A stretch of 64,000 bases of DNA, taken from an uncultured virus (IMG/VR IMGVR_UViG_3300028393_000063). Its lineage: Duplodnaviria > Heunggongvirae > Uroviricota > Caudoviricetes. The position numbers were made by a program, and so were the translations under genes. Positions 2,671-27,933 of the stretch are shown in pieces (the first letter of the stretch is position 1; every line of letters starts with the position of its first letter). Under the pieces are notes generated by a model. That model was not told the DNA's origin, did no database searches, and saw only the letters and a program-made list of their open reading frames with translations. The stretch lies in IMG/VR virus record IMGVR_UViG_3300028393_000063. The stretch is one strand, 5' to 3'.

Positions 2671-3289
2671 TAGCTCTAGATTCTAGGGTTACTACACCCA
2701 ATTCTTTGTCTAAATCAAGAACCATAGACTGCCTTTGCTTTTTAGCAGGGGTTTCTACCCGCTCAACCTCGCCCATATACCTAGAAAGTTTTTTCTCTAG
2801 CTCTTCCTTGAGCTGGTCAGTAGTTCTATGCGTAACTGAAACCTCAATCTTGTCGGCGTACATACCCAAAGTGCTTAATCTTCCAAGACTTTCTAGGGCT
2901 CTTAGCCTATCAGCGGCTTTTTCCCCGTCCGATTCCTCAATAAGTCGAGTAGTTACATAGGTTTTTAGCTTAGCCGTGTCCTCAATAACCGTATTACTGT
3001 ACCGATACATTAAATCATTTAACCATTTAGCGGTTTCTGCGTTGAACGGTCTGCGATGTGCAATTGGTGAACCCGTAAACTGTGCCGCACTCTGCTGGGC
3101 AGCCTGCTCAATCAACTTCCTATCTTTAGGATTTTCTGGGTCTGGCTCTACTAGCCCATTTTGAATTAGAAATAATCTGGTATTAAACGCAGCTTTAGCA
3201 CGAGCGACTATATCCCCGTATTCATCGGGTTTAAAATCTGTCGGTATCGGTACCCCTAATTCAGGAGTAATCTTAATCGCATTAGTCAT
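2657..3289 (-). CDS. Putative terminase small subunit
   Basis: 210-aa helical protein immediately upstream of and overlapping terL; DRLRALESLGRL...MYADKIEV segment. Confidence 0.6.
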   Translation of the reverse strand: MTNAIKITPELGVPIPTDFKPDEYGDIVARAKAAFNTRLFLIQNGLVEPDPENPKDRKLIEQAAQQSAAQFTGSPIAHRRPFNAETAKWLNDLMYRYSNTVIEDTAKLKTYVTTRLIEESDGEKAADRLRALESLGRLSTLGMYADKIEVSVTHRTTDQLKEELEKKLSRYMGEVERVETPAKKQRQSMVLDLDKELGVVTLESRANDHA

Positions 3290-3330
3290 AGGAGGAAATT
3301 TATTAACACATTGGCACTCCGGTTAGACGA

Positions 3331-3359
3331 AGTATATAACACTTCTAAATTTTTTGCAA
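3331..3359 (-). promoter_or_regulatory. Sigma70-type promoter for the packaging/late arm
   Basis: Minus strand TTGCAA-N17-TATACT about 40 bp upstream of the terS start. Confidence 0.6.
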
Positions 3360-3630
3360 AATATTATATTGCCTAGGATTCTTTTAAAAAGATGACGGGG
3401 GTGTTTTGCATGAAATATTAAGTTAGTAGCGGCTAACAAATGCAAGGGGGTAGGGGGGTGCTCTGAAAATTATGAAGTCTAACGTGGAAATTCGAGTAAT
3501 AGTAGAAGCGTAGGAGTCCCACTTTTAAATTTGGGGGGTGCGGTGGGAACTATCCCGCCAAAAAATATGTAACACCGATGTTACTTGTTAAAACTATAAC
3601 TGTTTTAATTCTATAATGGTTTACTTATTA

Positions 3631-3747
3631 TAAGTTTACTAATGAGAATGATTATCGTTTATATGTTGCTAGGTTAACTAATGAGAATGATTATCGTTTA
3701 TATGTTGCTAAGTTTACTAATGAGAATGATTATCGTTTATATGTTGC
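3631..3747. repeat. 3 x 39-bp tandem repeat, each unit containing a Fur-box-like sequence
   Basis: Units 3631-3669, 3670-3708, 3709-3747 (TARGTTWACTAATGAGAATGATTATCGTTTATATGTTGC). Confidence 0.9.
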
Positions 3748-3829
3748 ATCGCATCATTCATTCATTACATACAAGTAACACTAGTGTTACTCATTCAATC
3801 TAATATGTTGTTTTAATGTTAGATATAAT

Positions 3830-3858
3830 TTGACATGTTATTTATATTCAGGCATAAT
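3830..3858 (+). promoter_or_regulatory. Sigma70-type early promoter
   Basis: TTGACA-N17-CATAAT. Confidence 0.75.
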
Positions 3859-3910
3859 AGATTCATGGTGTAGGAAACATCGTTTCCCCCATATTTTGAA
3901 AGGTTACAAA

Positions 3911-4537
3911 ATGACTACTACTACAAACCCTATTAGCAACATGGCATCAACCCTTGTAGGCAATAAGCCTGCTAACCCTAAAACACCAAGCAAAGGTATT
4001 ACAATGCTATCTCCTGAATTAACCCTTGCAAGTGTTACCAGTTACGCCAATGGTATTAAATTGGGTAATGATGCCGTAGCATTAATGAATGAAGCACTAA
4101 AACCTTTTCATGATGCTAAGGTTAAACTTGTTAAATCTTCCGAAACGAAAAGCCCGTTATTCGCTTATTCGAATCAGGTTAGAACTATGTTTATAGATGC
4201 TTTCAAAGGTGCAATTAATCCTAAGAGTAATAAGGGTTATTCTAAAGATTATATTGAGAAGCGTTTATATCCCGCATTTGTAACTGGTATTAACTCTGGT
4301 AAACCTATTAATAATATGCATGATAATGTTAATAAAAATAAATCAGGAAAAGCCAAAGGAGAGAAAACCGAAGCACAATACAAGGCGGATTTAATTAAAG
4401 CATTAACTACAATATATGAGTTATCAGATGCAGTTCCAAGTGTTATTGATTTTATGGATAATAGCATCGAATCAGGCAATAACTTTTTAGAGTCAGTAAT
4501 TGATTTTCTAAAATCAGAAGGCGTTGAAATTGCATAA
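3911..4537 (+). CDS. First early gene, hypothetical protein (monocistronic)
   Basis: ATG at 3911 preceded by GAAAGG, with its own promoter and terminator. The ORF-track start at 3830 is the -35 box. Confidence 0.75.
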   Translation: MTTTTNPISNMASTLVGNKPANPKTPSKGITMLSPELTLASVTSYANGIKLGNDAVALMNEALKPFHDAKVKLVKSSETKSPLFAYSNQVRTMFIDAFKGAINPKSNKGYSKDYIEKRLYPAFVTGINSGKPINNMHDNVNKNKSGKAKGEKTEAQYKADLIKALTTIYELSDAVPSVIDFMDNSIESGNNFLESVIDFLKSEGVEIA

Positions 4538-4553
4538 GTAACACCAATGTTAC

Positions 4554-4582
4554 AAACCCCTGAGAAATCGGGGGTTTTTTTT
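4554..4582 (+). terminator. Rho-independent terminator
   Basis: AAACCCCTGA-GAAA-TCGGGGGTTT followed by a T run. Confidence 0.85.
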
Positions 4583-4779
4583 CGCCCTAATTTTTAGGGC
4601 TATTTTTTTTTCTTGGAACTATCAAAACTATCATTTCGGTCTTGCCGAGTCTAAGCAGTAGCCGAGAAAACTATCAAGATTGTGCGTGCCAAGTTGCGTG
4701 CCAAGCGGATGCCGAGCAGTTGCCAAATATAAGTAACACCGATGTTACTCGTTGTAAGTTTAGTATAGTAATGACAATA

Positions 4780-5200
4780 TAAGATAATGCCCAAAACTTA
4801 AGATAATGCCCAAAAGTTAGTATAATGCCCAAAAAGCATTGGTTTACAATGAGTCAAATCGACCTATACTCAGCATGGTCTGCAGGTCTGTTTTCAAAAA
4901 AAGAGTGTCTTGGATATATATAAGGTTTTGTATAGAGAGAAATGTGTTACAAATAAAAAAAATGTGTTACGGCATTGGCAAATTGCGTTTAAAAGAGAAG
5001 CGTTCTTTTGCCGATTTTCAAAAAAACCTGCAGAAATAGATTCTATAAGGGTGTATTTTTTACGCAACACTTGACATTCAGGCAAATCGACCTATACCCA
5101 TCATGCCCTCCAAGCCAATTTCCTCAAAAACAATCACTTTTTTTTTACTTTTGGGCATTCGTTTAAGTTTTGGGCATTCGTTTAAGTTTTGGGCATTATA
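4780..5200. repeat. Two inverted clusters of 3 x 19-bp repeats (origin candidate)
   Basis: ATAATGCCCAAAA at 4784, 4803, 4822; TTTTGGGCATT at 5149, 5168, 5187. Confidence 0.85.
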
Positions 5201-5461
5201 TCTTCCATAGCCTTCTTTACACTTTCATGTAAACCTACAACAACTTACCCACACTTCTTCCATTTTTTACTCACAAAATCCTTCTCTCCTCCGCCCCATT
5301 TCCCAAAAGTGTGCAACAAAAAAACAAAATGTGCAACAAAAAATCATGCTATACTGTGCAACATGTCTCACACTTTGTGTTACACTAAACTGTCTCACAA
5401 ACCCTTATTTTGTCTCACAAACCATTTATTTGTCTCACACTTTTACAGGAACCCCTAAAAA

Positions 5462-5779
5462 ATGGCAAGAAAACTCACAAAAGGTCAATTCATAAATTTT
5501 CGTGTTTCAGACGAGATTCACACCTCTCTCATGCAATTAGCCAACCGAAAAATGATGCCCATATCAACCATCATGCGAGTCGCTTTGCACGAATACATAA
5601 CCAAGGTATCAATCGAGATGCTTGCCGAAACTCCCCCAACAAACGGCACTACTCTCACCGATATAGCCAACCCACACTATGCCCACATAGTAAACGCACC
5701 TGCATCACCAAAGAGCCAACTAAGTAACACGAGTGTTACTAACCCACTATACGAGGATATTGCAGATGAGTGGATATGA
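5462..5779 (+). CDS. Ribbon-helix-helix (Arc/CopG-like) DNA-binding protein
   Basis: FINFRVSDEIHTSLMQLANRKMMPISTIMRVALHEYI fits the beta-alpha-alpha RHH pattern. Confidence 0.7.
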   Translation: MARKLTKGQFINFRVSDEIHTSLMQLANRKMMPISTIMRVALHEYITKVSIEMLAETPPTNGTTLTDIANPHYAHIVNAPASPKSQLSNTSVTNPLYEDIADEWI

Positions 5780-6212
5780 TAATATAAAGAACGCTTATCT
5801 ATATCGAAAGAAAGATAATAGGTTTGGTTCAAAGAACAAGATAATATCTAGGATTAAAAACCTTAATAACCCTGATAATATTAATAATCCAAATAACCCA
5901 AAGATAACCAACGAAGTATTAATACTGCATATAGATAATGAGTATCTTTCCCTGCCCGAAGCATCTGCTAAATATAATATCTCGGAGACTATACTCAAGC
6001 GTAGGTATACCCGTGGTGCTAGAGACACAGAGTTATTAAATCCTGTGCAAGCAGACCATGCGTTAATCGTTGCTCTGGATGGAGAGACACGGACTCTTAA
6101 AGAACTGTCACAAATGTCGGGGATTAAAATTGGCACAATCCTCATGCGGTATCGGAGTGGTAAACGAGGGAGGGATTTGATAAAGCCTGTGAAGCATATA
6201 CTCAAGTTATAA
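5766..6212 (+). CDS. Protein with two tandem HTH-like repeats
   Basis: YLSLPEASAKYNISETILKRRYTRG and TRTLKELSQMSGIKIGTILMRYRSG; likely ATG at 5766. Confidence 0.6.
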   Translation: MSGYDNIKNAYLYRKKDNRFGSKNKIISRIKNLNNPDNINNPNNPKITNEVLILHIDNEYLSLPEASAKYNISETILKRRYTRGARDTELLNPVQADHALIVALDGETRTLKELSQMSGIKIGTILMRYRSGKRGRDLIKPVKHILKL

Positions 6213-6226
6213 CAAGTTATTCCAAC

Positions 6227-6255
6227 TTGACAAGAACGCATAATAGGAGTAAAAT
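6227..6255 (+). promoter_or_regulatory. Sigma70-type early promoter
   Basis: TTGACA-N17-TAAAAT. Confidence 0.8.
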
Positions 6256-6261
6256 AGTAGT

Positions 6262-6885
6262 TATAGTGGTCGAAGTATGGGAGTGCATAGGGTAAGTAAC
6301 ATTCGTGTTACTTATGATAACCGAAACTTCTAGACCACCCTCTTTAACAACTTAGTAAATATCCTAGTCATAACGCACTAGGTGTAGGGTAGGCATAGGT
6401 TGCAGATACATTGATTAATGGCGTGGGATTACAGACCACAACGAAAGCGTGAGTAATGGTAGAAGGGTTTTTAAAGTAAGGTTAATGACCGAGTAGCCCG
6501 ATATAACCGCAAACAAGTGAAACGAGAATCATGTAACAAGTAACACCGATGTTACATATGAGCCGTGAAGAACTATTAAAACAGCAAGCACGAACAAAAA
6601 CAAGAAAAGCCAAAGACAATGAGTCGCATCAAGTATTGAATACCGAACAGTATCCCTACGATTTATATATAGCAAGCAGACTTTATCTGTGAACATGATG
6701 TGCATACGCACCAAGTAACTCCGTATCTGATGCCACTTACTATATATAAGTCTTGCCCCTAACCTCTAACAAGAACTGCGAGAAAATAGCAGAGGGCGTA
6801 ATAATTTAACAACTAGCGTTGATATTAAAAGGTAAAAGATTTATAGAAGGGCTTGATTCGTCAGGCTCTTCACTTAAGTTTTTTA
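6262..6885 (+). ncRNA. Candidate ~600-nt structured RNA or leader with boxA-like element
   Basis: No + strand ORF of 60 aa or more; several inverted repeats; CTCTTTAACAA at 6340-6350; terminal hairpin at 6846-6871. Confidence 0.4.
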
Positions 6886-6904
6886 ACCATGAAAGGAAAA
6901 GCAA

Positions 6905-7120
6905 ATGAAAAAACCGAAGTTTAGACCACGATGCTTAGATTGTGGTGAGCCGTATGCTCGAAGCAGATGGAAGATAAGTATTATGTATTGCCTACCATGT
7001 GGAGATTTGCGTGCAAAGGATAGAAAGTTTACAATAGCAATCCCATATAACAAAGGTGCGTATCAGGTAATATATAATGCACAAGATTTAGCAACAACTA
7101 ACCCAAAGAGGACAACATGA
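6905..7120 (+). CDS. Small zinc-finger protein
   Basis: CLDC...CLPC; SD GAAAGG upstream. Confidence 0.7.
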   Translation: MKKPKFRPRCLDCGEPYARSRWKISIMYCLPCGDLRAKDRKFTIAIPYNKGAYQVIYNAQDLATTNPKRTT

Positions 7121-7726
7121 GTGAATTTTTTGAAGAGATTAGTGACGATGAGCCAACCCGTGCAGAATTAGAAATGATTAACCATTGGGGTGAGAAGTGT
7201 GAAGACTACCAAAAAGGGTGTGGTGTTTGCGATGCTTGGAAACATTTTGAAAAAACTAACGAGGTAATAAGATGAGTGACGAAGATAAAAAACCAGTAAC
7301 AGTAGTAACTAGCCGAATCATTAACAATATGATTGCACCAAGGAAGAATAAGCGTAGTATCAAAGTCCATGTGCCTACCTTACTAGATGTATTGCACAAG
7401 GATATATCTTTTGCAGAGAAGATAGAAGCAGTAAGGGCAGTCAATCCATATTTTTATTTATTAACACCTAAACCAAAGAAAGCGAAAGGACAGAAATGAA
7501 ACAACGAAAACTAGCAATACCCTACAAGGGCGATGACATTGCCACTTTCAACCACAACAATAAGTATCACCGAACATCAAGCGAAGCGTTTAGGGATGCG
7601 GAGTATGCCTGTGCCGTGTCTCATAACAAGAGTGTTAAGCGAGATATGATGGAGTTTGGGTTTATGGCAGTAGCCCTTATCAGTTTGTTTATAACGCTAA
7701 AGTATGTTATAATGTATTATAAGTAG
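7117..7726 (+). CDS. Three small hypothetical early genes (7117-7275, 7272-7499, 7496-7726)
   Basis: ATGA-coupled ORFs; the last has a C-terminal hydrophobic segment. Confidence 0.6.
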
Positions 7727-7797
7727 TAGATGTTTGTAGTAAGATGTTATAAGTAACACAGATGTTACATTCAATTTAAACTCAGAAAGGATTTATC

Positions 7798-8688
7798 ATG
7801 CAGACAGAATTAAACTTAGACTTACCCACAGACTATGCGTATGCAAAGATTTCGTCATCAGCCATGCTAGTCGATTTGTCTTTATCAGTATGGACGGCTC
7901 GTAAGTTAGACAAGAAGGTATCAGCCGAAGTAGACCAAGCCAAGTCCACAAAAACTAGGGCAGGTAACTACAACAAAAACTTGTTAGCAGGTTCATCGAA
8001 GTTAGATGAGATTGGTAAGATTGCGTCAGCCGTGCGTAATTGGCATTATCTACAGACAAGTCCGTGGTCAGATTCAGGCACAAGGTTATTGCCAGCAACA
8101 TTATTCATAGACTATAAATCCCAGTTAGGACAATGGGAAAAGATGTTTACAGATGCCGTTGATGCGTTTCTTGTTGAGTATGATGACATCGTTACCGCAT
8201 CAGCGTTTCAGTTAGCAGGATTGTTTAACCGTGATGACTACCCTCATGTAAATAAAGTGCGTGAGAAGTTTGGGTTTAACTTCTTCTTTAGCCCTGTGCC
8301 TGAGAGTGGTGACTTCCGTATAGATATAGGTGAGCAAGGTATGAGTGAGTTGAGAGACCGCTATGAATCAGCCTACAAAAGTCGTATTGAAACTTCCATG
8401 AAAGATGTTTGGGACAGGGTTTACACTACCCTCCGCCATATATCCTCTAAATTAGATTCAACGGAAGGTAAGCAGAGACTATACGATAGCATGGTGGATA
8501 ATGCCGTGGAACTATCAAAACTCCTCAAACATCTAAATGTTACGCAAGATTCAAGGCTTGAGCATTTACGCATGGACATGGAGAAAGCGTTGCATGGTGT
8601 AAGTTGTGAGGATTTAAGGGATAGCGAAGCGATGCGTGAAGATACCAAGCGTAAGGTAGATGCTATGTTAGATAAGTTTGCTTTTTAG
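7798..8688 (+). CDS. DUF3150-like helical protein associated with the AAA/vWA pair
   Basis: 296 aa with SD; context upstream of a MoxR-type AAA and vWA gene; family assignment from recalled similarity. Confidence 0.55.
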   Translation: MQTELNLDLPTDYAYAKISSSAMLVDLSLSVWTARKLDKKVSAEVDQAKSTKTRAGNYNKNLLAGSSKLDEIGKIASAVRNWHYLQTSPWSDSGTRLLPATLFIDYKSQLGQWEKMFTDAVDAFLVEYDDIVTASAFQLAGLFNRDDYPHVNKVREKFGFNFFFSPVPESGDFRIDIGEQGMSELRDRYESAYKSRIETSMKDVWDRVYTTLRHISSKLDSTEGKQRLYDSMVDNAVELSKLLKHLNVTQDSRLEHLRMDMEKALHGVSCEDLRDSEAMREDTKRKVDAMLDKFAF

Positions 8689-8690
8689 CC

Positions 8691-8900
8691 ATGAAAGTAG
8701 GTGACTATGTTTTATACGGCGACCATGCGTGGAAAGTATTTAAAAAACACAAGAAAGGAACATTTCAAATTAAAAGATTAAGTGGCAACCTTCTCATATA
8801 TTGGGGGGATATAGAAGTATCCGAAGATTTATGCGCAGTAATTACTAAAGAAGTAACAGATGTATTTATAGCAAGTAACACCGATGTTACAAACAATTAA
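8691..8900 (+). CDS. Hypothetical protein
   Basis: 69-aa ORF in operon (MKVGDYV, SH3/KOW-like start). Confidence 0.55.
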   Translation: MKVGDYVLYGDHAWKVFKKHKKGTFQIKRLSGNLLIYWGDIEVSEDLCAVITKEVTDVFIASNTDVTNN

Positions 8901-8917
8901 CCAAAAAGGAGAAGTAA

Positions 8918-10000
8918 ATGAGTGATATATACAAATCAATCAGTCTTAAACAAACTGCCGAGTTAATCTTAGCAGTAGGCGATAGCGTTACCGTGTTGGC
9001 TCAGGGTGAGATGGGCATAGGCAAGTCTAGTATTCTCAAAACCCTCAAGGAAAAGTTAGGTGATAAGTATCACTATTGCTATGGTGACATGACCACTAAA
9101 GATGTGGGTGACTTCCTTGTCCCTAAGATTCGAACTATTGATGGTGTTGAGGTATGTTCGTTTATACCTAACGAGGAGTTCGGGTTTCACTTTGATAAGC
9201 CGATTGTCTTGATGTTAGATGAGATAGGCAAAGCAAGTAAAGCAGTAATGAACGCTTGTCTACGCTTGATGCTAGAGAGACAACTAGGCACATACGAGTT
9301 ACCCAAAGGAAGTATTGTGTTCGCTACTACAAACCTAGCAACCGAGGGTATCGGTGACTTGTTGCCCCCTCATGCAAGGAATCGTATCACAGTAGTTAAG
9401 GTAGCAAAACCAAACGCAGAAGCATGGATTGAGGACTTTGCGTTAGGCAATGGCATCTTGCCCGAAGTTATTATGGGTGTAAAGCAATTCCCTCAAATGT
9501 TTCAATCATTCGAGGATTTGAAAGACCCGAAGGACAATGAGTATATCAATGACCCTCGTATGCCTAGACCTGCATTTGTTACACATAGAAGTATGGCAAA
9601 GGCTTCCGACATTATCAGTAAGACGAAGCATCTAGGCAATGACATTGTTAGTCATGCTCTTATTGGTACGATTGGGGCTAGGGCTACGCATGACATGATG
9701 GCTATGGTGATGTTGGCTAATGACTTACCGTCATGGGAAGAAGTTGTCAGTAGACCTGATACGGCTCGTATTCCTGATAGCCCAAGTGCAGTATGTATGC
9801 TTGTGTATTCAGCAGTTCAGCGTGTCGATAAGGAGAATGTCAATGCTTGGATTAAGTATGCGAATCGTCTAAGCAAGGAAGCCCAAGCGTTATTTGCAAC
9901 AAGTGTTATGCGTGTCGCAAGTAAGGCATCTTTAGTAGGCACAAGCCGTGGCTTTATTGATTGGGCTACGAAAAACAATTATCTATTTAATGGAGTTTAA
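8918..10000 (+). CDS. MoxR-like AAA+ ATPase
   Basis: Walker A GEMGIGKS, Walker B LMLDE, sensor ATTN, arginine-finger region ARNR; SD AGGAG. Confidence 0.85.
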   Translation: MSDIYKSISLKQTAELILAVGDSVTVLAQGEMGIGKSSILKTLKEKLGDKYHYCYGDMTTKDVGDFLVPKIRTIDGVEVCSFIPNEEFGFHFDKPIVLMLDEIGKASKAVMNACLRLMLERQLGTYELPKGSIVFATTNLATEGIGDLLPPHARNRITVVKVAKPNAEAWIEDFALGNGILPEVIMGVKQFPQMFQSFEDLKDPKDNEYINDPRMPRPAFVTHRSMAKASDIISKTKHLGNDIVSHALIGTIGARATHDMMAMVMLANDLPSWEEVVSRPDTARIPDSPSAVCMLVYSAVQRVDKENVNAWIKYANRLSKEAQALFATSVMRVASKASLVGTSRGFIDWATKNNYLFNGV

Positions 10001-10001
10001 T

Positions 10002-11207
10002 ATGAGCAAACTTACAGCAGAACAACGGATTGAGAGAAACCATGTAGGGCTTATGAAGCATAAGGATTTTGTAGCCTATAGTGGGCTACTCATGGTGGGT
10101 AAAGTAAGTGTTACTGATACCTGCCCTACGGCATACACCAATGGTAGAGATGTAACTTATGGGCGTGGCTTTGTAGATACCCTTGCGGATGATGCAGAGT
10201 TGCGTGGCGTTATCATACATGAGACTAAGCATAAGATGTATCGGCATCTAACTACATGGCGAGGGTTATGGAAACAGAATCCTCAAGTAGCAAACATGGC
10301 TTGCGACTATGTAATCAACATCGAGATTGTCGATGAGGGTAGTAAATCAAATGGGTATATTAAACTGCCCAAGTGTGGCTTATACGATGACAAGTATCGT
10401 GGTATGAGTTCTAAGGAAGTCTTTGACCAACTATTATTAAACCCCCCTCCTCCCCCTCCTAAAGGTAATAAAGGTGGCGATGGCGATGGTGGTAGTGGTA
10501 GCGATGGTGAGAGTATGGACGAGCATGGTTGGGAAGAAGCCCAAGAGATGAGTGCCAAGGAACAAGATGACTTAGCCAAGGAAGTAGATAATGCTATTCG
10601 TCAAGGTGCAATTTTAGCGGGCAAGGTTGGGGGCAATGTCAATAGATGTTTTGACGAACTAATGTCATCGAAGGTAGATTGGCGAGAAGCCTTGCGTGAG
10701 TTTGTATCAGCAGTATGTAGTGGCAAGGACGATTCAACATGGCGTAAGCCTAATCGTAGATGGTTGCAACATGACATCTATATGCCTAGCACTATATCCG
10801 AATCAATGGGTAGGTTATGTGTTGCCGTAGATACATCAGGCTCTATTAGAAATGAAGATGTTAATAAGTTTCTATCCGAGGTTGTAGCCATGATGGAGAA
10901 TGTTAATCCCGAACTAATAGACTTATTGTATTGGGATAGCGAAGTGGCAGGGCATGAGGTATATGGGCAAGGTGATTCAGGCAAATTACTATCATCTACA
11001 AAACCCAAGGGGGGTGGTGGCACAAGCCCAAGTTGTATATCTACATATTTAGCAAGTAACCATATCAAGCCTGAAGCGGTTGTAATTTTAACCGATGGGT
11101 ATGTAGGTAATGATTGGGGTGGTGATTGGGGTTGTCCTGTTCTATGGGCAATCGTTGGTGGGTGTAAGGCAGTCCCTGAGAAGGGTTCAGTAATTTATAT
11201 AGACTAG
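10002..11207 (+). CDS. DUF2201-type metallopeptidase-like + vWA protein
   Basis: HETKH (HExxH), NMACDYVIN, Pro/Gly linker, MIDAS DTSGS, GGGT, LTDGY; ATG at 10002. Confidence 0.85.
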   Translation: MSKLTAEQRIERNHVGLMKHKDFVAYSGLLMVGKVSVTDTCPTAYTNGRDVTYGRGFVDTLADDAELRGVIIHETKHKMYRHLTTWRGLWKQNPQVANMACDYVINIEIVDEGSKSNGYIKLPKCGLYDDKYRGMSSKEVFDQLLLNPPPPPPKGNKGGDGDGGSGSDGESMDEHGWEEAQEMSAKEQDDLAKEVDNAIRQGAILAGKVGGNVNRCFDELMSSKVDWREALREFVSAVCSGKDDSTWRKPNRRWLQHDIYMPSTISESMGRLCVAVDTSGSIRNEDVNKFLSEVVAMMENVNPELIDLLYWDSEVAGHEVYGQGDSGKLLSSTKPKGGGGTSPSCISTYLASNHIKPEAVVILTDGYVGNDWGGDWGCPVLWAIVGGCKAVPEKGSVIYID

Positions 11208-11216
11208 GAGAAAGGT

Positions 11217-11477
11217 ATGACAACTATAGTAAAAGAATTAGAGTTAGAGGAGGAAATAGATAGGTTGCAAATAAAAGTCGAAAGCCTTGAGGAAGAAGTG
11301 CAAGGCATGGATGAAGAGATTATGAATTTAAACGATAGAGAAAACGATTTAGAAATGCAAAGGGATAAGTTGCAAGTTGATTTAGATGAAGCACAGGAAA
11401 TTATTTATTGGATAAAAGAAGCATACCCACAAATAATGGTTGAATATAACGCAGTAATGGATATACAAGGGAGATAA
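11217..11477 (+). CDS. Acidic coiled-coil protein
   Basis: Heptad pattern, highly Glu/Asp-rich; SD AGGAG. Confidence 0.65.
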   Translation: MTTIVKELELEEEIDRLQIKVESLEEEVQGMDEEIMNLNDRENDLEMQRDKLQVDLDEAQEIIYWIKEAYPQIMVEYNAVMDIQGR

Positions 11478-11857
11478 CATGGAAGCAGTATGTATACAGC
11501 AAGATGATTTAAAGCAGAAAGTATTACACCGTGTAACAACAACGGTAGATGGTAAGAAGTATCAAATAACCTTTAGTGCAGAGTGTCCAATAACTGCAAT
11601 AAAGATTGCTCATGGAGTTCCATTAAATTATTGGGAGGAAATAGAATGAAAGATTATCCAGAGTTAGCGTATGAAGCAGACCATGCTTTCTATATATGGG
11701 AGACCACGATGTATGGTGAGAAGTCTCCTCTATCCGATGCAGATAGGGAGTTATGGATAGCAGGGTTTTTACGAGGGTATAGAGTTTTAGAAGCAGAAGT
11801 AAAACATAAGTAACACAGATGTTACATTCAATTTAATCAAACGAAAGGTGGTATATC

Positions 11858-12919
11858 ATGGGTTTTTATAACGGAACAAGAAGTCCTGAAGAAGTGCAGG
11901 CAAATAATGGTGACAGACTTGATTTTAACGGCATTAAAACTAAATGGGAAAATACTACACCCTTACGAGGTAAACGGTCTCATTTGGATATACGCCCTAT
12001 AGGAGATAGAAGTAGGTCGCATGAACGGATTGTTAAGGTTAGTGATTCTGAATTCTATTTAACTAATACGGCTTATGCGTATTCAGAACTGCGTAGAGAA
12101 GAACGAGAAGAACATCCTGAACATAATAGATGTATAACATTTAAGCAAGACGAGTATTGGGAAACTATCACGGTTCATGTACCACGGAGTTATTGGGGAG
12201 ATGGTCGCAAAAAGCCTTTCCTTGAAAGAGATATGTACCCCAGAGGTATATCCGCACCAAGCACTTACCATTTTTACGAGCATAACTTACCGATGGAATT
12301 AAGTTTACACAAGGTAGGAACTAAGCCATATGTAAAAGCTTGTTCCGAGCAGAGTAGTGTAGGTTCATTTCTATTGTGGAAAGGTGATATATCTTTTATC
12401 CGTAAGATAGGCGATAAGTGGTTTAGTCCGTTTAAAGTATATGCCGAGTCTAAATTAAGTTTAGACAGAGATAAGACTAAAGCAATCCGAAAAAGCTTAA
12501 CAAACTTTATAGGTTATGTGCAGACTATGTTGCCTATAATGGAGGGGGTTAAGGGGTATACAGGTTACTATAGTTACAGTCCGTTTTCGTTTGAGAAGAC
12601 AGCTGACCGTCAGGGTATGGGCGAGAAGATACTACCTTTGTGTAACAAATCATGGGAAGAACTTGTTGTCTTAAAGGACGAAGACGATGTGCCTGATACT
12701 TGGTTTACGATGGTTGAAATGTATAGGCAGAGGTTGGTTAAAAAATCGTATTCGAGAAATCGTGATACCAATGAATCCGTTGTGACAGAGCAGTTTCCTA
12801 GTAAGCAACGAATCAAAACCACAATCTGTGAAGATGTATACAAGCAAGCCCTACCGTTTCTAACGGAAAGAGTCCCACTAGGCGTGCCATTTATGAATAA
12901 CAAATACCAATCATGGTAA
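11858..12919 (+). CDS. Hypothetical protein (353 aa)
   Basis: Long ORF with SD AAAGGTGG, preceded by a palindrome copy. Confidence 0.75.
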   Translation: MGFYNGTRSPEEVQANNGDRLDFNGIKTKWENTTPLRGKRSHLDIRPIGDRSRSHERIVKVSDSEFYLTNTAYAYSELRREEREEHPEHNRCITFKQDEYWETITVHVPRSYWGDGRKKPFLERDMYPRGISAPSTYHFYEHNLPMELSLHKVGTKPYVKACSEQSSVGSFLLWKGDISFIRKIGDKWFSPFKVYAESKLSLDRDKTKAIRKSLTNFIGYVQTMLPIMEGVKGYTGYYSYSPFSFEKTADRQGMGEKILPLCNKSWEELVVLKDEDDVPDTWFTMVEMYRQRLVKKSYSRNRDTNESVVTEQFPSKQRIKTTICEDVYKQALPFLTERVPLGVPFMNNKYQSW

Positions 12920-12932
12920 GAAAGGTAATATT

Positions 12933-13763
12933 ATGAGTAACGAAACTGTAGTAGTAAAAGATATAAACGGTGAAGAAATAAATGTTTTAATTAAAACTAT
13001 GGAGTTATTTAACGCAGTAAAACTTAAAGACCCTATGCTCATTATCAAGGAGGGGTGTAGAAAAAAAAGCACCCTAACAAGAGGAGACGATGTGCCTGTA
13101 ACATTATACAGAGGGGTGGAGTTAATCCATGCAAGTAATCCTGAGTTTATTGTAGGCGGTCTTATGTATATAGACGATAAGTATGTGGTAGAGAGTCGGC
13201 TTATAGAAAATAATAAGTATGCCCACTACAATGGCGAACATCGTTGTAATGCGTCTCAGAACATGAAGAATATAGTTAAGATTGCTCTGAACAAGTTAAA
13301 ACCTTTACAAATAAACGAGGTAGCAAGAAAGTCTCAAGAGTCTTGCCGAATTCATGGTGACATAAGTGATATAAGGCATGAGATAGCTAGGTTAATAAGA
13401 GATGAAATTAGTGGGGTATCCCGTGCCGAAATCTTTGTAGAGTTACTACACATGAGAAACATGGGGTATAAACCCAAAGGCGAAGCAATGGGGAAGTTAA
13501 TGGCGTTTGCCAATAAGAACGAAGCACAATTTAGGGAAGACTATGAATTTAATCCTGAAGTAAGGTTTGTATACATAAACCCTAACAATACCCTAACTGT
13601 AACCAACCAAGAGGGAGAGAGTATAGGGGATTACCCTAATGTTAACTCATTACCAGAAGATATATTGAGTAAGTTAACGGTGTTGATGTTGAGTCCTGAT
13701 AACACCTTTATTAGGGGTATAGGTAAGAAAGATAAGGAGAATATGTTTTGGATAACTCTGTAA
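12933..13763 (+). CDS. Hypothetical protein (276 aa)
   Basis: Long ORF with SD, in operon. Confidence 0.75.
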   Translation: MSNETVVVKDINGEEINVLIKTMELFNAVKLKDPMLIIKEGCRKKSTLTRGDDVPVTLYRGVELIHASNPEFIVGGLMYIDDKYVVESRLIENNKYAHYNGEHRCNASQNMKNIVKIALNKLKPLQINEVARKSQESCRIHGDISDIRHEIARLIRDEISGVSRAEIFVELLHMRNMGYKPKGEAMGKLMAFANKNEAQFREDYEFNPEVRFVYINPNNTLTVTNQEGESIGDYPNVNSLPEDILSKLTVLMLSPDNTFIRGIGKKDKENMFWITL

Positions 13764-14140
13764 TACTCGGTAAGATAAAAGATGCCTACAACGGCATACT
13801 AGACCAAACAATATTAAAGTGTAGACGAGAGGGTAAAAGGGAAGAAGTGCATGAGCATTTAGCATCTATGTTAGACATGAAACAAGAGGACTTGTTGCTA
13901 AATAATGTGTGTCGCTTAGAGATATTAGAAGGCGGTTCTTTTTCTATAAAAGACTTTACAGTGCCAAGTAGGGATGTTATTATAAATAAAACTTACATTA
14001 AAAAAGACTTGCCCAAGTGGATGTTAGATGCCTTATCGGTCTTGCAAATACTAGATGATGGTGCAACAATTACTAATGTAGGTAAGAAAATAGACGGCAC
14101 AGTCTTTTATTTATTAGAACCTATAAGCGAGGAAAGTTAA
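13748..14140 (+). CDS. Hypothetical protein
   Basis: 130 aa; C-terminal LPKWMLDALSVLQI...VGKK resembles LPEDILSKLTVLML...IGKK of the upstream ORF. Confidence 0.65.
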   Translation: MDNSVILGKIKDAYNGILDQTILKCRREGKREEVHEHLASMLDMKQEDLLLNNVCRLEILEGGSFSIKDFTVPSRDVIINKTYIKKDLPKWMLDALSVLQILDDGATITNVGKKIDGTVFYLLEPISEES

Positions 14141-14490
14141 TGGCAAGCACGCCTGAGAAAAAAGTAAAAGATAAAGTAAAGAAAATCCTTAAGGACAATG
14201 GAGTTTATTTCTTTAGCCCTGTCACAGGGGGGTACGGTTCATCAGGTGTGCCTGACATAGTAGGTTGCTATAAGGGTAGGTTTATAGGCATAGAAACAAA
14301 AGCAGGTAGTGGTAAGCCGACTGCCTTACAAGATAAAAACTTAGCTGAAATAATGGAGAAAGGAGGAGTTGCAATACTAGTAAACGAAAATGGTATTATT
14401 TATTTAGAAGAGATGTTTAAAGTAGGTCTCCCCAATGCAGGGATTTTATACGATTTATTAAAAGGAAAAGCAAATGAGAAAGACGAATAG
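14140..14490 (+). CDS. VRR-NUC family PD-(D/E)XK nuclease (resolvase-like)
   Basis: PEKKVK...GVPDIV...GIETKA...PTALQ...GG motif set. Confidence 0.85.
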   Translation: MASTPEKKVKDKVKKILKDNGVYFFSPVTGGYGSSGVPDIVGCYKGRFIGIETKAGSGKPTALQDKNLAEIMEKGGVAILVNENGIIYLEEMFKVGLPNAGILYDLLKGKANEKDE

Positions 14491-14959
14491 CAGTACAATT
14501 AAAGCCCGTAAATTTTTACAAACAAACCCCGATATAAAAGGTGCGGACTTAGCAAGAAAGTTTAGCATAGCCATGCCTACAGCCTATAAACTAAAGAAGG
14601 AACGGACTGTATCAGATATTGTCCATGAGATAACATTAGGTATGGAAAAGAAAAGGTTAACTGAGCAAGATAAAATTGACATCGACCTAGAAATACATAA
14701 CGATGAAGAAATTAATGGTGTATCAGGTGCTAGATATACTTTCATGGATACCTCACCAAGAATAGCCGACTTAGTTAATAGCCCTCCGCATTACAGGGTA
14801 GGTGGTATTGAGACTATTGACTTTATTGAAGCCAAGCAATTAGGATACCATTTAGGTAATGTAGTTAAGTATGTAAGCAGAGCCGACCACAAGGGCAACA
14901 AGAAACAAGATTTGGAGAAAGCCAAGTGGTATCTAGAGAGGGCGATTGAAACTTTATGA
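14474..14959 (+). CDS. DUF3310 (SaV-like) protein with N-terminal HTH-like segment
   Basis: VNSPPHY...GIETID...GNVVKYVSRA..K...DLEKAKWYL. Confidence 0.85.
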   Translation: MRKTNSSTIKARKFLQTNPDIKGADLARKFSIAMPTAYKLKKERTVSDIVHEITLGMEKKRLTEQDKIDIDLEIHNDEEINGVSGARYTFMDTSPRIADLVNSPPHYRVGGIETIDFIEAKQLGYHLGNVVKYVSRADHKGNKKQDLEKAKWYLERAIETL

Positions 14960-15109
14960 ACGAGAACGACTTGAGGGATTGCTTTGCTATGTTCAAGGCT
15001 ATAACAGGTGCAGACGCAGAGGAGTGTTATAAGTTTGCAGATGAGATGCTTGAAGCACGCAAGCCACAACAAGAGTCAGGTATAACAGCCGCCAAGAGGA
15101 AAAAGAAGG

Positions 15110-15487
15110 ATGTTTGAGCAAGCGATGAACAATAAGTATGCTACTCACATAGACTTTGGTTTCCTCAAGGGGTTTATACCGTCTAACCCTAAAGTTATGC
15201 CGTCAAACATCGACATGGTGTTTGAACGGCGAGGGTACTTCTTGTTTGGTGAATGGAAACGCAAGAATGAAGCAATGAGTACAGGGCAGAAGATTGTCCT
15301 AGCAAACTTGGCAAAACTATCACGAGTAAAAGTCTTTGTAATCACGGGAGACACGGACAACAACACGGTAAATATAAGCGACATATCTATGATTACCAAG
15401 GAAGGTCTATACAAAAAAGTAGGTAGCTCGGTGGAGGACTTGCAAGCCATGCTAAACATGTGGTATGAGAAAGCTAATGGAGACTAG
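15110..15487 (+). CDS. Hypothetical, possibly PD-(D/E)XK-fold protein
   Basis: SNIDMVFER...FGEWK...GQ pattern. Confidence 0.5.
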   Translation: MFEQAMNNKYATHIDFGFLKGFIPSNPKVMPSNIDMVFERRGYFLFGEWKRKNEAMSTGQKIVLANLAKLSRVKVFVITGDTDNNTVNISDISMITKEGLYKKVGSSVEDLQAMLNMWYEKANGD

Positions 15488-15682
15488 ATGGGCGATATAG
15501 AAGATGAGGAAGATGAGGAAGAAGAGAAGCAACCTCAAAACAACGAGGCGTACATGAGTCAACAAGAGGTAGCAGATGTTCTAGGGCTATCTAGGAATAG
15601 GATTAGTGAGATTGAGAAGAAAGCCCTAGAAAAATTTAGATACCATTTATTTAGGAAGTATAAAAAGAAAGACATATTATGA
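15488..15682 (+). CDS. Sigma70 region-4-like HTH protein
   Basis: MSQQEVADVLGLSRNRISEIEKKALEKFR. Confidence 0.75.
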   Translation: MGDIEDEEDEEEEKQPQNNEAYMSQQEVADVLGLSRNRISEIEKKALEKFRYHLFRKYKKKDIL

Positions 15683-18393
15683 GCAAAGAATTCTTTTGGG
15701 CAATTTGCCTAGGTATTATGTTCTGTGGATTTATTATCTACCTCACCGAACTAAGTCGCAAAGAAGAGACGTACAAAATTAACTGCCAAACATTGATGGG
15801 GGGGTGGCATCCCGATGTACCAAAAAAGTTTGTAGAGTTGTGTGAACAAGCAAAGACAAGCAAAGAACGATAAATGACATTTAATATTTATACAAAGGAA
15901 GGGATACATTATACGCAATTCTTTGAAACAATAGATGAACTAATAGCACACATGATTAAAAACAATCAACATTCTTACCACAGGAGCGATAAATGAAACC
16001 AAGTGCATACATATCAGATGGCGGTATATTGTTTAAAGAATCACCACCTGATTCAATACTTAAATTGAGTCCGTTATATACGTCAGCAGAAATACAAGCG
16101 TTGCATAACTTAGTTAAAGAGCAACAGGCTGAGATAGAAGAGTTGAAACTATTTAAAAATCAAATGAAATCAAGAAAAGCTATGGTTAAATGGCTTTCAG
16201 AAGAAAGTGAGTGAGAAATGACTGCAAATGAACTAGCTGATAAATGTAATAGGTTACAAGGTGAAATAATACTTGGGTTTTTGGCTGATTGCGCCACCAT
16301 GCTACGCAAACAACAGGCTGAAATAGAAGCGTTGAAACAACATTGGAGCGAACCACAAACAGACTTAATAGTTTTGCTACGAGAAGAGGTAACGCTAATG
16401 CAAAAGTATTTACAGGAACAAAACTTGCGTGAGCATTTTGTAACGTGGAGGCAAGAGAAATGATTACCGCAACCATCGAAATTCAAGTGGACAGGACACA
16501 TACATTTGTACGAGTTTGGGGTGAAGGTATTGCTTTAGAGATTGCCGAAGAACTAATAGAAATAGCACGAAACATGGACACCGAAACTTTGATGGGTATT
16601 CAAGTAATCAAGAAACAATCTAACTAAGAAAGCGAGTGAAAAATGAAAGAAGTAACACGAGATGAAGTAACGCATCGTAAACAAAATGAAAAACTAATAG
16701 ACGAGTTAGTAAATTCAGTAATCATGCACCACGCAAGTAAAGTATTAAGGACTAGGATTGCCGAGATATTGTATAAGCATATCCCAACTCTTGACCAAGC
16801 GTGTTATGAGCGTGGTTGCCCTTGCATAGACCAATTTGAAGAGGAGGAGGAGGAAGAAATGACTGAATCAAGAGCATACATAACTGAAGATTTATGGTTT
16901 CCCTGTGACACTTGTGGTAAACAAATAACGCATCATACAATGCACGATTGTTTTGTAATGAACCCTGACATCTTGCCAACGCTTGAGGAGTGGAAATTAA
17001 TTTGTAAGATGGTTAAGCAACAACAGGCTGAAATAGAAAAGTTAAAAGTAATATTATTTGAATTAAAGAACGCTTCATTAGATTTATGTAAAATAGTTGA
17101 GAAGGCGAGTGAGAAATGATTAACTACATTTGCGTACACTGTAAATCAAAGATACTAACCATACTGGTTAAGTGTCCGTACTGCCGTAAATAAGGAGAAG
17201 AACCATGACTGAAGCAGAGGAATTAAAGGCGTTAGTAAAATCATTCTTTGAGGACTACTTAAATGTTACAGAAGCATCGGACAGCGGTAGGATATTTAAC
17301 CCAATCCATATTAGTTGTGTAAGGGCAATGAAAATAGAACCTTTAAGTAAACTCTTAGACCGTATGAAAGAATTATCGGGTGTAAAAACGGGGAGCAGGT
17401 ATGTCTAATGAATATACACCTGACAAGTGGGAACTTATAGAAATAGTTAGTGAGGAAGGTGAAACACTATACAAAATACTTTCTAGTTGGTATGGTGGGT
17501 ATGGTGGTTCAGATTCATGGCGATTTAGTTCGGGCATTATTAAAGTAGTTGAGCATAACAAACATTATGAGGTACACAATGATTCGGGTAGCGTCTACAT
17601 CTGCCATAAAGGTTCTAAGGGGATGAGTGCGTACACGGGGGTTGTATTTACCAATTTAAAGAAACAATTAGAAGCGAAGAAGTTAGGCACGTTGAAAATT
17701 GTAAACCGTAGTAAATTTAATCAATTTAAACAAGGAGAAGTAAATGAGTAGATTATGGGAAGTAGCAAACGCAGTAGAAGAAGTATCATATAAGTTAGAA
17801 AACTTAAGGCAAGTTGTTTCAATTATTGCAGAGCATAACGAAGAAGCTGGGGCTTTATGGTCGGTAACTGATTCTATGAAGACACTGGTTGAAACGCTTG
17901 AAAAAGAAGCAAACCTTATTTTAGCGCACCTACGAGAGGTTGCCATTGAAGCGAATACAAAACCAACGAAGAAAGGAAAGAAAGATGCCTGAGTTTACTT
18001 TGATATGTAAGTACGACAACATAGATGTAACTACAAAAACCTTTGAAGAAGTAGAGTTACATTATGTACTAAACAACATAGAGTTATTCTTAAAAGGTTG
18101 TGGATATATTTTTGAAGGAACTTTAGACATTATTAAACCTGAAGAGGAGGAATCAAATGTGGAATTATAGGGTAATTAAATTTGTAGAAGACAAAGAAGA
18201 ATGGTTTGAGATAAGCGAGGTATACTATAACGCCTTTGGTAAACCCGAAGCGTATTGCAGGGCTACCGTAGGGGAGGGAGACATGGATGCCCTAAAAGAA
18301 ACGCTTAATAGAATGATGGATTGTGCAAACAAACCTATTCTAAAAAGTACGGAGTTTGCAAAAAGAAAGACAAATGAAAATATTAACGATTGA
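15679..18393 (+). CDS. Cluster of small hypothetical genes (15679-15873, 15993-16214, 16218-16463, 16460-16627, 16643-17119, 17205-17408, 17401-17751, 17744-17992, 17985-18170, 18157-18393)
   Basis: Tightly packed or overlapping + strand ORFs with SD sequences. Confidence 0.6.
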
Positions 18394-20194: not shown

Positions 20195-20226
20195 AATAAG
20201 CAAGCAATAAAAATAAAAGGAAAAGT

Positions 20227-20898
20227 ATGACTACGTGGTCTTATAGTAGTATTACGCTGTTTGAGCAATGCCCTAAAAAGTATTTTCATTTGCGAGTGGA
20301 AAAGGATTTTAAAGAACCCGAATCCGAACAGATGAAGTATGGAACAATTGCGCATAAAGCCGCAGAAGATTACGTAAGGGAAGACATACCACTACCTCCG
20401 CAATTCTCCTACATGACTGAGATGCTAGACAAGCTAAAGAATGTAAAGGGCGAAAAGCTCTGTGAATATAAGTTAGGGGTACGATATAAAGATGGGAGGT
20501 TTACACCTTGTGAGTTCTTCTCTAAAGATGTTTGGTGGAGAGGTATAGCGGATTTAATTATACTAGACAGAGAGAAACAAGAAGCTAGGGTAATAGACTA
20601 TAAGACAGGCAAATCAGCCAAGTATGCGGATACTAAACAGTTAAAGTTAATTTCTGCCGCTATATTCCTGCATTTCCCTGAGATACGGACTATAAAGGCT
20701 GGGTTGTTATTTGTTGTTTCTAAAGAGTTTATTAAGGACGAGTTTAGTTCAGATTTTAAATTAGCCTATTTCGAACACTTTATGCCAGTTGTAAAACAGC
20801 TAGAATCGTGTCATACTAATGGGGTCTGGAACGCCAAGCGTAATTTTACTTGTAGTAAATGGTGTTCAATAACCACTTGCCCTCATAATGGAAGCTAA
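20227..20898 (+). CDS. Cas4/RecB-like PD-(D/E)XK exonuclease
   Basis: SYSS...CPKK, GTIAH, GIADL...IDYKTG, C-terminal CSKWC...C. Confidence 0.85.
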   Translation: MTTWSYSSITLFEQCPKKYFHLRVEKDFKEPESEQMKYGTIAHKAAEDYVREDIPLPPQFSYMTEMLDKLKNVKGEKLCEYKLGVRYKDGRFTPCEFFSKDVWWRGIADLIILDREKQEARVIDYKTGKSAKYADTKQLKLISAAIFLHFPEIRTIKAGLLFVVSKEFIKDEFSSDFKLAYFEHFMPVVKQLESCHTNGVWNAKRNFTCSKWCSITTCPHNGS

Positions 20899-20900
20899 TA

Positions 20901-21185
20901 ATGCCGTATGTAAATAAACCAAGACCTTATAAGCACGAATACGAAACTTATCAAGGTAAGCCTGAGCAGATTAAAAAACGAGGTGAACGCAATAAAGCCC
21001 GTGCTTTAATGGAGAAAGCTGGTAAGGTGCATAAGGGTGATGGCAATGATGTAGACCATGTTAAGCCTTTAAGCAAGGGTGGTACAGGGGCTAAGGGTAA
21101 TTTAAAAGTTAAGAGTAAGAGTAACAATCGTAGTTTTAGTCGGAACAGCGACCATACGGTTAAGAAAAACGTCTCTAAAAAGTAA
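20901..21185 (+). CDS. Small HNH endonuclease
   Basis: DVDHVKPLSKGG...NL......NR. Confidence 0.75.
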   Translation: MPYVNKPRPYKHEYETYQGKPEQIKKRGERNKARALMEKAGKVHKGDGNDVDHVKPLSKGGTGAKGNLKVKSKSNNRSFSRNSDHTVKKNVSKK

Positions 21186-21401
21186 TAGGTGAAGCAACTA
21201 CAGGATAAGATACGAGTGCCTAGCTAGTTCAGGATTAAAAACCCTTCATGTTGTAAACCGTATCAGTTAGCCATATTTCATCTTTCCTTCACGGAATACC
21301 TTTCTGGATAGGGGCTAACAGACAGTCGGGAAAGACCGGCAATAATACTAATGCTTGAAACGGACACCGTATTCAGGCTGTTTATCTATTGGGAGAAGTA
21401 A

Positions 21402-22952: not shown

Positions 22953-22976
22953 CATTGTTAAGAAGTATGGTATATT
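22949..22976 (+). promoter_or_regulatory. Sigma70-type promoter
   Basis: TTGACA-N16-TATATT with TG just upstream of -10. Confidence 0.55.
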
Positions 22977-23008
22977 AATAAAAAGCAGGTAAAAAAAGGA
23001 AAAGTAAA

Positions 23009-24459: not shown

Positions 24460-24492
24460 GAAAGGCGGGGGGCTTGCCCCCCATACAAAACT

Positions 24493-24726: not shown

Positions 24727-24787
24727 AAGCCAGCTTATAAGCTAGGTGCCACTAGCTTGTAGGGATTATTGTCGGCGTTTATAGAGG

Positions 24788-27907: not shown

Positions 27908-27933
27908 GCCCCGACAAGTTCGGGGCTTTTTTT
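27908..27933 (+). terminator. Rho-independent terminator at convergence of the two arms
   Basis: GCCCCGA-CAAGT-TCGGGGC followed by T7. Confidence 0.8.

Follow-up and report, generated by a model that had tools for sequence, protein, structure and literature searches.

Lineage-specific loss of short palindromes from the early gene segment of an uncultured phage points to selection by host restriction

The early gene segment of an uncultured phage of the Caudoviricetes (IMG/VR record IMGVR_UViG_3300028393_000063) lacks several short palindromes of which the late genes hold hundreds of sites. We have analyzed 64,000 nucleotides of this genome, called the window throughout, together with relatives found through their large terminase, TerL. 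The purge is specific to position, to palindromes and to the phage lineage. Avoidance of restriction is strongly supported as its basis, and the segment is likely to be the first part of the genome to enter the host. We favor, as slightly better than an even proposition, a reading in which the segment forms the leading end of the genome and faces host restriction at a time when protection has not yet been set up. Phenomena of this kind are known; the extreme, multi-motif and nested form seen in this phage family is new.

Results

Short palindromes are purged from the early segment

A preliminary description of the window had noted a 9-kb early stretch free of AGCT, in which roughly 100 AGC triplets were never followed by T, and from which CCGG and GGCC also seemed to be absent after about 3325. 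These observations hold. The 275 AGCT sites of the 64-kb window leave a gap between one at 3191 and the next at 12337, and T follows none of the AGC triplets in positions 3290-12336 (0/128); CCGG is found last at 3319 and next at 21336 (absent from 3320-21335), and GGCC last at 2486 and next at 25718 (absent from 2487-25717). The list of depleted motifs was, however, incomplete, as it missed five more 4-mers and the motifs GCWGC, GGWCC, CCSGG and CASTG, as well as right edges of the void that are specific to each motif. Using expected counts for 3290-12336 from a maximal-order Markov model, we find AGCT (0 observed, 18.8 expected), GTAC (3 and 27.5), ACGT (1 and 22.8), GCGC (1 and 9.0), CCGG (1 and 8.7), GGCC (0 and 17.4), GATC (0 and 27.5) and CGCG (0 and 6.1) to be the lowest eight of the 136 reverse-complement 4-mer classes by the ratio of observed to expected counts (O/E). 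In the segment, O/E is below 0.2 for eight of the 16 palindromic 4-mers. The early, middle and late parts of the window contain 0/4/101 sites of GCWGC, 0/1/31 of GGWCC, 0/1/32 of CCSGG and 0/4/25 of CASTG, and at least 12 short motifs have been purged from the early segment. Avoidance of three of the 4-mers extends over the genome, GATC and CGCG being absent from all 64 kb (about 127 and 84 expected) and GGCC occurring 14 times across the window against 133 expected.

Codon usage, which the preliminary description had named as a possible explanation, is excluded. We shuffled synonymous codons 500 times within the 17 open reading frames (ORFs) of the segment, so that neither the proteins nor the codon usage of the segment changed. 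In the shuffled sequences AGCT occurred 20.5 +/- 3.9 times, with a minimum of 11 and against none observed (n = 500), and for each of the eight purged 4-mers the observed count was reached by 0/500 shuffles. Because the shuffles retain the codon usage of the segment yet never match the observed counts, the depletion is not a product of that usage.

The void has a sharp onset and nested right edges

The left edge of the void is sharp: the depleted set has dense sites as far as 3482 and then breaks off, which places the edge between 3483 and 3568, about 50-90 nt ahead of the first putative early operator (see below) and adjoining the divergent junction with the terminase gene. On the right the edges are nested, at 12.2, 12.3, 15.8, 16.3, 21.3 and 25.7 kb depending on the motif, with GTAC back at 12179, AGCT at 12337, ACGT at 15769 and GCGC at 16291. 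Three tiers can thereby be told apart: an early AGCT-free tier, the innermost and strictest of the void (3195..12336, not assigned to a strand); a middle tier of replication and recombination genes, in which AGCT, GTAC, ACGT and GCGC return stepwise (12337..27652, plus strand); and a late arm of structural and lysis genes (27932..64000 and on through the window start to 3289, minus strand).

Recovery in the middle tier is incomplete. AGCT has 12 sites in the 5.7 kb from 12.3 to 18 kb, whereas the late arm has 5.5 per kb, and the tier is still poor in CCGG (2 sites), GCWGC (4), CCSGG (1) and GGWCC (1) up to the strand switch. Thus, GCWGC has 4 sites in 3600-27652 and then 10 in the following 4 kb, and CCGG has 2 and then 6. 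In the late arm strong avoidance is limited to GATC (0), CGCG (0) and GGCC (13 observed, 83.5 expected); densities there reach 5.5 per kb for AGCT, 4.2 for GTAC, 3.2 for GCGC and 2.5 for GCWGC. When a palindrome is called strongly depleted at an O/E below 0.25 with an expected count of at least 5, the early, middle and late zones of the window have 8, 4 and 3 such palindromes, the last three being GATC, CGCG and GGCC.

Relatives share the onset of the void and differ in the purged motifs

A TerL scan returned 80 loci, and four complete relatives (G002, G003, G004 and G005), 71-82% identical to the window in TerL and 62-70% in the DNA polymerase PolA, were rotated to the window frame. All four share the layout of the window, with a void onset at about 3.4-3.8 kb in each, and the sets of purged motifs differ. 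G002 is without GTAC to 15.7 kb, GGCC to 18.4 kb, GCGC to 19.0 kb and CCGG to 35.0 kb, and has retained AGCT (428 sites); G003 is purged of AGCT, GTAC, GATC and CCGG, and G004 of AGCT and CCGG; G005 is purged of GCWGC and CCSGG only, at its leading end. The numbers of strongly depleted palindromes in the early, middle and late zones are 8/4/0 in G002, 4/1/1 in G003, 2/1/1 in G004 and 0/0/0 in G005.

The lineage specificity is seen within orthologous genes. A trio of early genes of about 3.2 kb (7798..11207, plus strand), found in all relatives, codes for a DUF3150-like protein (296 amino acids, aa), a MoxR-type AAA ATPase (360 aa) and a protein with DUF2201 metallopeptidase and VWA domains (419 aa). 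The trio is orthologous in all five genomes, at 36-83% amino-acid identity, and the purges within it follow the lineage: in the window it has no AGCT, ACGT, GCGC or GATC, one GTAC and eight TCGA sites, in G002 15 AGCT sites and no GTAC or TCGA, in G004 16 GTAC and 16 GATC sites, and in G005 22 ACGT and 19 GATC sites. The TerL gene retains the motifs purged from the trio in every one of the five genomes.

We also picked by eye 25 of the 80 loci that have several kb on either side of TerL (others may qualify), and dropped four with a late side shorter than 3 kb. At least one palindrome is strongly depleted on the early side only in 12 of these 21 partial relatives. Over the 16 palindromes there are 19 early-only depletions and 1 late-only depletion, and over the 120 non-palindromic classes 1 and 0; these loci are not independent, as L007 and L008 are near-duplicates and some are part of the complete genomes.

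Genome, gene layout and candidate genome end

The window represents most of a phage genome of about 65.4 kb, since a 5.7-kb contig (L001, 100% identical) links its end to its start over 1,436 missing bases. Sequence of the window is carried by 24 runs, mostly freshwater metagenomes; all 24 are available as assembled contigs, and those of four were aligned to the window for inspection of termini and depth. TerL (1123-2670, minus strand) is 50-60% identical to that of phage 023Pt_psg01, phage DSL-LC04 and the Pelagibacter phages HTVC023P and HTVC027P (for the latter two, 52-54% across 87-89% of the length), and the window encodes a PolA-type (family A) DNA polymerase. Judged by TerL, the family A polymerase and a size class of about 60 kb, the window phage is a relative of the HTVC023P-type podoviruses. 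Its gene order is unlike that of the cultured relative HTVC027P, whose early genes gp34-gp37 adjoin TerL according to the transcriptome in PMC12753301; with gene order differing, this would be a loose parallel to the window. A megablast search of the early segment against a phage collection gave no match, and a blastn search with 20001-28000 gave one of 158 nt.

Two gene arms diverge from about 3.3-3.8 kb. The rightward arm begins with small early genes from 3.9 kb and continues with replication and recombination genes on the same strand to 27652, so that every gene from 3.9 to 27.65 kb lies on the plus strand, the direction of the proposed entry. The middle block codes for a resolvase-like nuclease (14140-14490), PolA (18356-20194), a PD-(D/E)XK exonuclease (20227-20898) and a protein with a weak Mu Gam-like match under the Pfam cut-off (23009-23404), all on the plus strand, and also for a helicase and a primase before 27652. 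The late arm opens with the gene for a protein of 2170 aa (27932-34444, minus strand) that has an LPD38 "polyvalent protein" domain and a weak match to YkuD L,D-transpeptidases, and which is likely an injected virion protein; next to it, the proteins of 1134 and 706 aa matched no family. An HslV-like peptidase and an HNH endonuclease (59243-60027, plus strand) lie within the minus-strand structural arm and resemble an inserted cassette. A second AGCT-free stretch (48229-51918, 3.7 kb) and an ACGT gap (47935-50005) lie over a tail-fiber ORF (48720-52073, minus strand), whose 5' end is near-identical to that of G003, pointing to a recent exchange of the module.

Between a 210-aa ORF (2657-3289, minus strand) and the first operator there are four runs of five or six G residues of the GGGGGTG type (3396..3541, plus strand), the last of which is at 3533, while the operator is at 3569. 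The final sites of the depleted set, CCGG at 3319 and ACGT at 3482, lie near or within this cluster, three to six such runs are found at the same location in all five genomes, and the separate contig L001 terminates at 3568. We predict that the cluster is a packaging, terminase recognition or terminus region, and the conserved G-runs, the edge of the void inside the cluster and the end of L001 give indirect support to a genome end near 3.5 kb. No start or end points of molecules are visible in the contigs of the four runs, which break only within a 39-bp tandem repeat (3631..3747, plus strand); this repeat has three copies in the window and one in a strain of about 96% similarity in run X7, and it is here that Logan contigs break. 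Contig depth, a crude measure, is 1.0-1.6 times as high on the early side as on the TerL side, against the 2-fold of a long terminal repeat.

Putative operators, promoters and early genes

As the preliminary description had stated, the ten exact GTAACA-N4-TGTTAC palindromes of the window all lie in the early interval (3569..11825, plus strand; 10/10). With up to two mismatches the motif has 14 matches, against 4.7 +/- 2.1 in shuffled sequences, none of which reached 14 (0/100). Most copies closely follow a stop codon, and the next ribosome-binding site and ATG come 15-35 nt later. The array spans the same stretch as the strictest tier, its last site being at 11810, about 400-500 nt before the return of GTAC and AGCT. 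Other palindromes, confined to the early arm, take their place in the complete relatives: TCCCTA-N3-TAGGGA in G002, TTCATA-N3-TATGAA in G005, TTAACA-N2-TGTTAA in G004 and GCGACA-N3-TGTCGC in G003. They occupy the same kind of site, after a stop codon and 15-35 nt before the next start; such a palindrome is repeated at least three times in 20 of the 25 partial loci, the range among relatives is 3-11 copies, and many share an inner ACA...TGT core. Members of one first-gene family accompany differing palindromes (CTAGAC-N2-GTCTAG in L003, CCCTAT-N1-ATAGGG in L009). From their placement, these interrupted palindromes are probably operators of a co-evolving phage regulator that mark early transcription units, rather than restriction sites. 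Candidates for the regulator are the product of the first early gene and that of an HTH-like ORF of 159 aa (5733-6212).

Promoters of the sigma-70 type are predicted rightward at 3588, 3830, 4798, 4843 and 6227. The first (TTAAAA-18-TATAAT, 3588..3617, plus strand; a consensus match only) is directly to the right of the first operator and points into the early arm; the second, upstream of the first gene, is the best of the region, with 11 of 12 consensus positions (TTGACA-17-CATAAT, 3830..3858, plus strand). The first 3.3 kb of the arm (3588-6255) has both matches of 11 positions in 12 and three of the four of 10 in 12, all of them rightward. The promoter-like consensus match TTGACA-17-TAAAAT (6227-6255, plus strand) shares its non-coding leader with an operator (6296-6311, plus strand), and downstream of this strong promoter-like site lies the boxA-like 11-mer CTCTTTAACAA (6340-6350, plus strand). 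The 11-mer also occurs in the early leaders of G002 (rotated position 5764) and G005 (rotated position 5050), that is, in three of the five genomes, and suggests Nus-factor antitermination of early transcription by the host polymerase. In a passage of one paper that has an extended boxA-like string, the enhancer in question is called the rrnB boxA sequence. Parts of the non-coding stretch in which these elements lie (6212-6905, 0.7 kb) are conserved in G002, where as in the window they come directly after the boxA-like motif; the stretch may be a leader or contain a small RNA. A search of 3000-18000 against Rfam gave nothing at threshold and one sub-threshold match.

The first early gene (3911..4537, plus strand) codes for a protein of 208 aa with an isoelectric point (pI) of 9.0 and 10% aspartate plus glutamate, and has an operator and two terminator-like hairpins (4554-4600) downstream. 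Its evolution is fast: the first gene of G002 shares 26% identity with it, while values for the conserved trio are 63-83%. None of its 13 homologues is named. Searches of Pfam and PHROGs gave no family, and that of PDB sequences no match. Its AlphaFold model is all-helical, with a predicted local distance difference test (pLDDT) score of 69, and Foldseek found no PDB fold at E <= 0.001; in Atlas the only leads, below 0.9, were DUF3102 and a Streptomyces phage repressor. Basic, and helical in a model without a fold match, the protein is not an Ocr-like acidic DNA mimic. The DUF3150-like protein of the trio and a 353-aa ORF have no meaningful PDB sequence match either.

Discussion

Specific both for palindromes and for the lineage, the purge carries the hallmark of selection by Type II-like restriction enzymes. 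As hundreds of these sites remain in the late arm, the two arms cannot be equally exposed to the enzymes, and a purge of the early arm pays only if the late arm is inaccessible to the same enzymes at the same time. Moreover, a common onset in relatives that are purged of other motifs is what selection by host restriction on the first-exposed DNA predicts. The explanation published for T5 and Murciavirus, in which sensitivity to restriction depends on the first-injected region only (PMC12455610), is the simplest one here. The preliminary description had proposed that a single segment of 9 kb enters first and that a gene within it protects the remainder. The proposal of first-entering DNA gains from the depletion being real, palindrome-specific and of the same onset in relatives with other motifs, whereas the single first-step segment does not agree with the nested edges, and we regard it as less likely than a graded entry in three tiers. 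It is from these patterns that we infer the polarity of entry, its staging, its motor and the existence of a protecting function.

In the favored reading, a linear podovirus genome of about 65 kb would enter with its early segment first, unprotected before the restriction enzymes of the host, and selection would remove the targets of whichever Type II-like enzymes each lineage meets. Removal would be strictest over about 3.5-12.3 kb, weaker to 27.65 kb and absent from the late arm except for GATC, CGCG and GGCC. Protection would grow as early and middle gene products accumulate. The nested edges would fit a slow polar internalization better than a single two-step transfer, and its motor, as in T7 and N4, would most likely be rightward transcription that the host RNA polymerase starts from the sigma-70-like promoters of the left end. 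The nested edges, 24 kb of co-directional genes, the rightward promoters and the boxA-like 11-mer together make a progressive entry driven by the host polymerase plausible. A further step would be to take the nested voids as a timetable of infection, in which the right edge of the void of each motif marks how much of the genome has entered when the matching enzyme ceases to threaten; this we put forward only tentatively, as a possibility well short of even.

Several points weigh against the reading of the segment as a leading end. Not all palindromes follow the pattern: TCGA is less under-represented in the segment (18 observed, 24.3 expected; O/E 0.75) than elsewhere (22 and 43.5; O/E 0.51), and CATG, at 55 observed and 48.3 expected (O/E 1.14) compared with 121 and 176.6 elsewhere (O/E 0.69), exceeds its count in all 500 synonymous shuffles, in part because CATG arises at start codons. 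In the first 8 kb of the late arm, the motifs depleted in the middle tier are not depleted (168 observed, 177.3 expected, P = 0.26, five genomes pooled; ratio for control motifs in the same test, 1.05). The long-range voids thus stop at the strand switch (27,652), a smooth decay with distance is not supported, and an end at this point suits a boundary between gene blocks as well as a boundary of entry. As the late genes run in the opposite direction, transcription cannot pull in the last 40 kb or so of the genome. The contigs of runs X1 and X3 are unbroken over 2068-3660, across the predicted end, and the junction therefore exists as DNA, which may be circular, concatemeric or a collapsed terminal repeat. 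Taken together, the promoter matches number 44, against 46.1 +/- 5.8 in shuffled sequences, and hence show no excess. Among the 87 ORFs, Pfam and PHROGs matches include no anti-restriction family, methyltransferase, base-modification enzyme or phage RNA polymerase. Finally, void and entry are linked by analogy with 6-bp and Type I sites, and T5 and T7, for both of which entry in stages has been established, are without a 4-mer void of this kind.

A T5-like two-step transfer, in which a segment of about 9 kb would enter up to a stop signal and one of its products would admit and protect the remainder, we consider unlikely. It would account for the return of GTAC (12179) and AGCT (12337) within 160 nt of each other and about 400-500 nt past the last operator at 11810, and for a palindrome array coextensive with the strictest tier, and it has the precedent of T5 itself (discussion of PMC12455610; annotation of the T5 record). 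However, ACGT stays absent to 15769, GCGC to 16291 and CCGG to 21336, GCWGC has only 4 sites up to 27652, and AGCT itself recovers only in part over 12.3-18 kb. A search at the sequence level found no homologue of the T5 DNA-transfer proteins A1 and A2 among the PHROGs and Pfam matches, and the depth ratio of early to TerL side, crude as it is, is not the 2-fold of a long terminal repeat.

It is also rather improbable that the genome enters as a whole and without staging, the early and middle blocks having to stay uncut until end-protection, recombination and host shut-off are established and cuts in the late arm being repaired or tolerated; the tiers would then reflect the time at which genes are needed and not the order of entry. 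The end of the long-range voids at the boundary of the early/middle and late blocks, rather than at a fixed distance, would agree with this, as would the PD-(D/E)XK exonuclease, the weak Mu Gam-like match and the resolvase-like nuclease encoded in the middle block. Against it, the hundreds of sites of the purged types in the late arm are in a single-copy genome that would be cut without a template for repair, and three voids pass the strand switch by 7-11 kb, namely that of GGWCC in the window (22764, then 35221) and those of CCGG (first site at 35010) and GATC (27017, then 39020) in G002.

We hold very little for a mosaic origin, in which the early arm would come from a phage lineage that avoids these sites genome-wide. 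Homologues of the first 4 kb or so (3.6-7.8 kb) are scarce or lacking among the relatives, and the AGCT-free stretch over the tail-fiber gene, whose 5' end is near-identical to that of G003, points to exchange; the trio, however, is vertically conserved in the four relatives and yet purged according to lineage, which rules out a mosaic origin for 7.8-11.2 kb, and the five genomes agree in where the void begins. Composition and codon usage can be dismissed as causes of an artefact, for while GCT and CT are scarcer in the segment (GCT 6.2 per kb, 17.5 elsewhere), AGCT never fell below 11 copies in the synonymous shuffles and the depletion is confined to palindromes, in the window as in the relatives (19 early-only cases to 1 late-only).

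Restriction-site avoidance is usually scored genome-wide, and surveys of restriction sites are described in PMC12455610 as having ignored the position of the sites. A search of one literature library found no paper that joins palindrome avoidance with the early region of a phage. With the same genes purged of different palindromes according to lineage, a sharp start and three tiers, the present phage family offers an unusually clean natural example of a positional effect. If the leading-end reading is true, the genome end and the polarity of entry would be predictable without culture, the purged motifs would list the restriction specificities that the phage meets, and the search for a broad counter-restriction function would narrow to about 9 kb of mostly unknown genes. 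If the voids can also be read as a timetable, the polarity and order of entry and the restriction repertoire of an unknown host would become readable from the sequence of uncultured phages, and the family would encode broad protection against many Type II enzymes, with the fast-evolving first genes or the trio of DUF3150-like protein, MoxR ATPase and VWA-metallopeptidase as candidates.

Comparison with known systems

One of the systems closest in kind is T5, in which an EcoRI site gained in the region of first-step transfer confers sensitivity and sites elsewhere do not (PMC12455610), and whose record annotates 1-10219 as first-step-transfer DNA. The window resembles it in a terminal block of about 9-10 kb of early genes that would enter first. 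It differs in that the T5 block lies within a 10-kb terminal repeat and has an annotated injection-stop signal, whereas no such repeat is evident in the window, in its purge of at least 12 short motifs with nested edges, and in that A1/A2 homologues are not evident. When scored in the same way, T5 1-10219 has no 4-mer void, the lowest palindrome being GGCC with 12 observed and 26 expected; some 6-mers are missing from it, for example AGATCT (0, against 21 in 10-50 kb).

In Murciavirus (Autographiviridae), sites in the first-injected region alone set the sensitivity to restriction, as found by experiment for one Type I motif (PMC12455610); in the window, many palindromes of 4-5 bp are concerned, and their role is deduced from sequence. 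Like T7 and Murciavirus, the window has early and middle genes that run along the proposed direction of entry, and host-type promoters are predicted at its proposed leading end. Unlike T7, it has late genes in the opposite direction, and neither a phage RNA polymerase nor an Ocr-like acidic first gene was found in it. By the same scoring T7 avoids GATC genome-wide (6 sites), with no positional gradient.

N4, a phage with staged entry, has the same layout as the window, with early and middle arms rightward and the late arm leftward. Short palindromes are repeated in the early region of N4 too, clustered at its left end; those of the window are spread over 8 kb before genes. We considered and rejected an N4-like identity of the window phage, with hairpin promoters and an RNA polymerase in the virion, as no virion RNA polymerase, nor any RNA polymerase family, is detectable in the 2170-, 1134- and 706-aa proteins with Pfam and PHROGs.

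Beyond phages, single-stranded transfer from oriT is described in PMC12455610 as having first-entering DNA that is poor in restriction targets and carries anti-defense genes; vehicle and entry mechanism, single-stranded in that case, are other than those of the window phage. Measured against T5 and T7, the void of the window is much the stronger.

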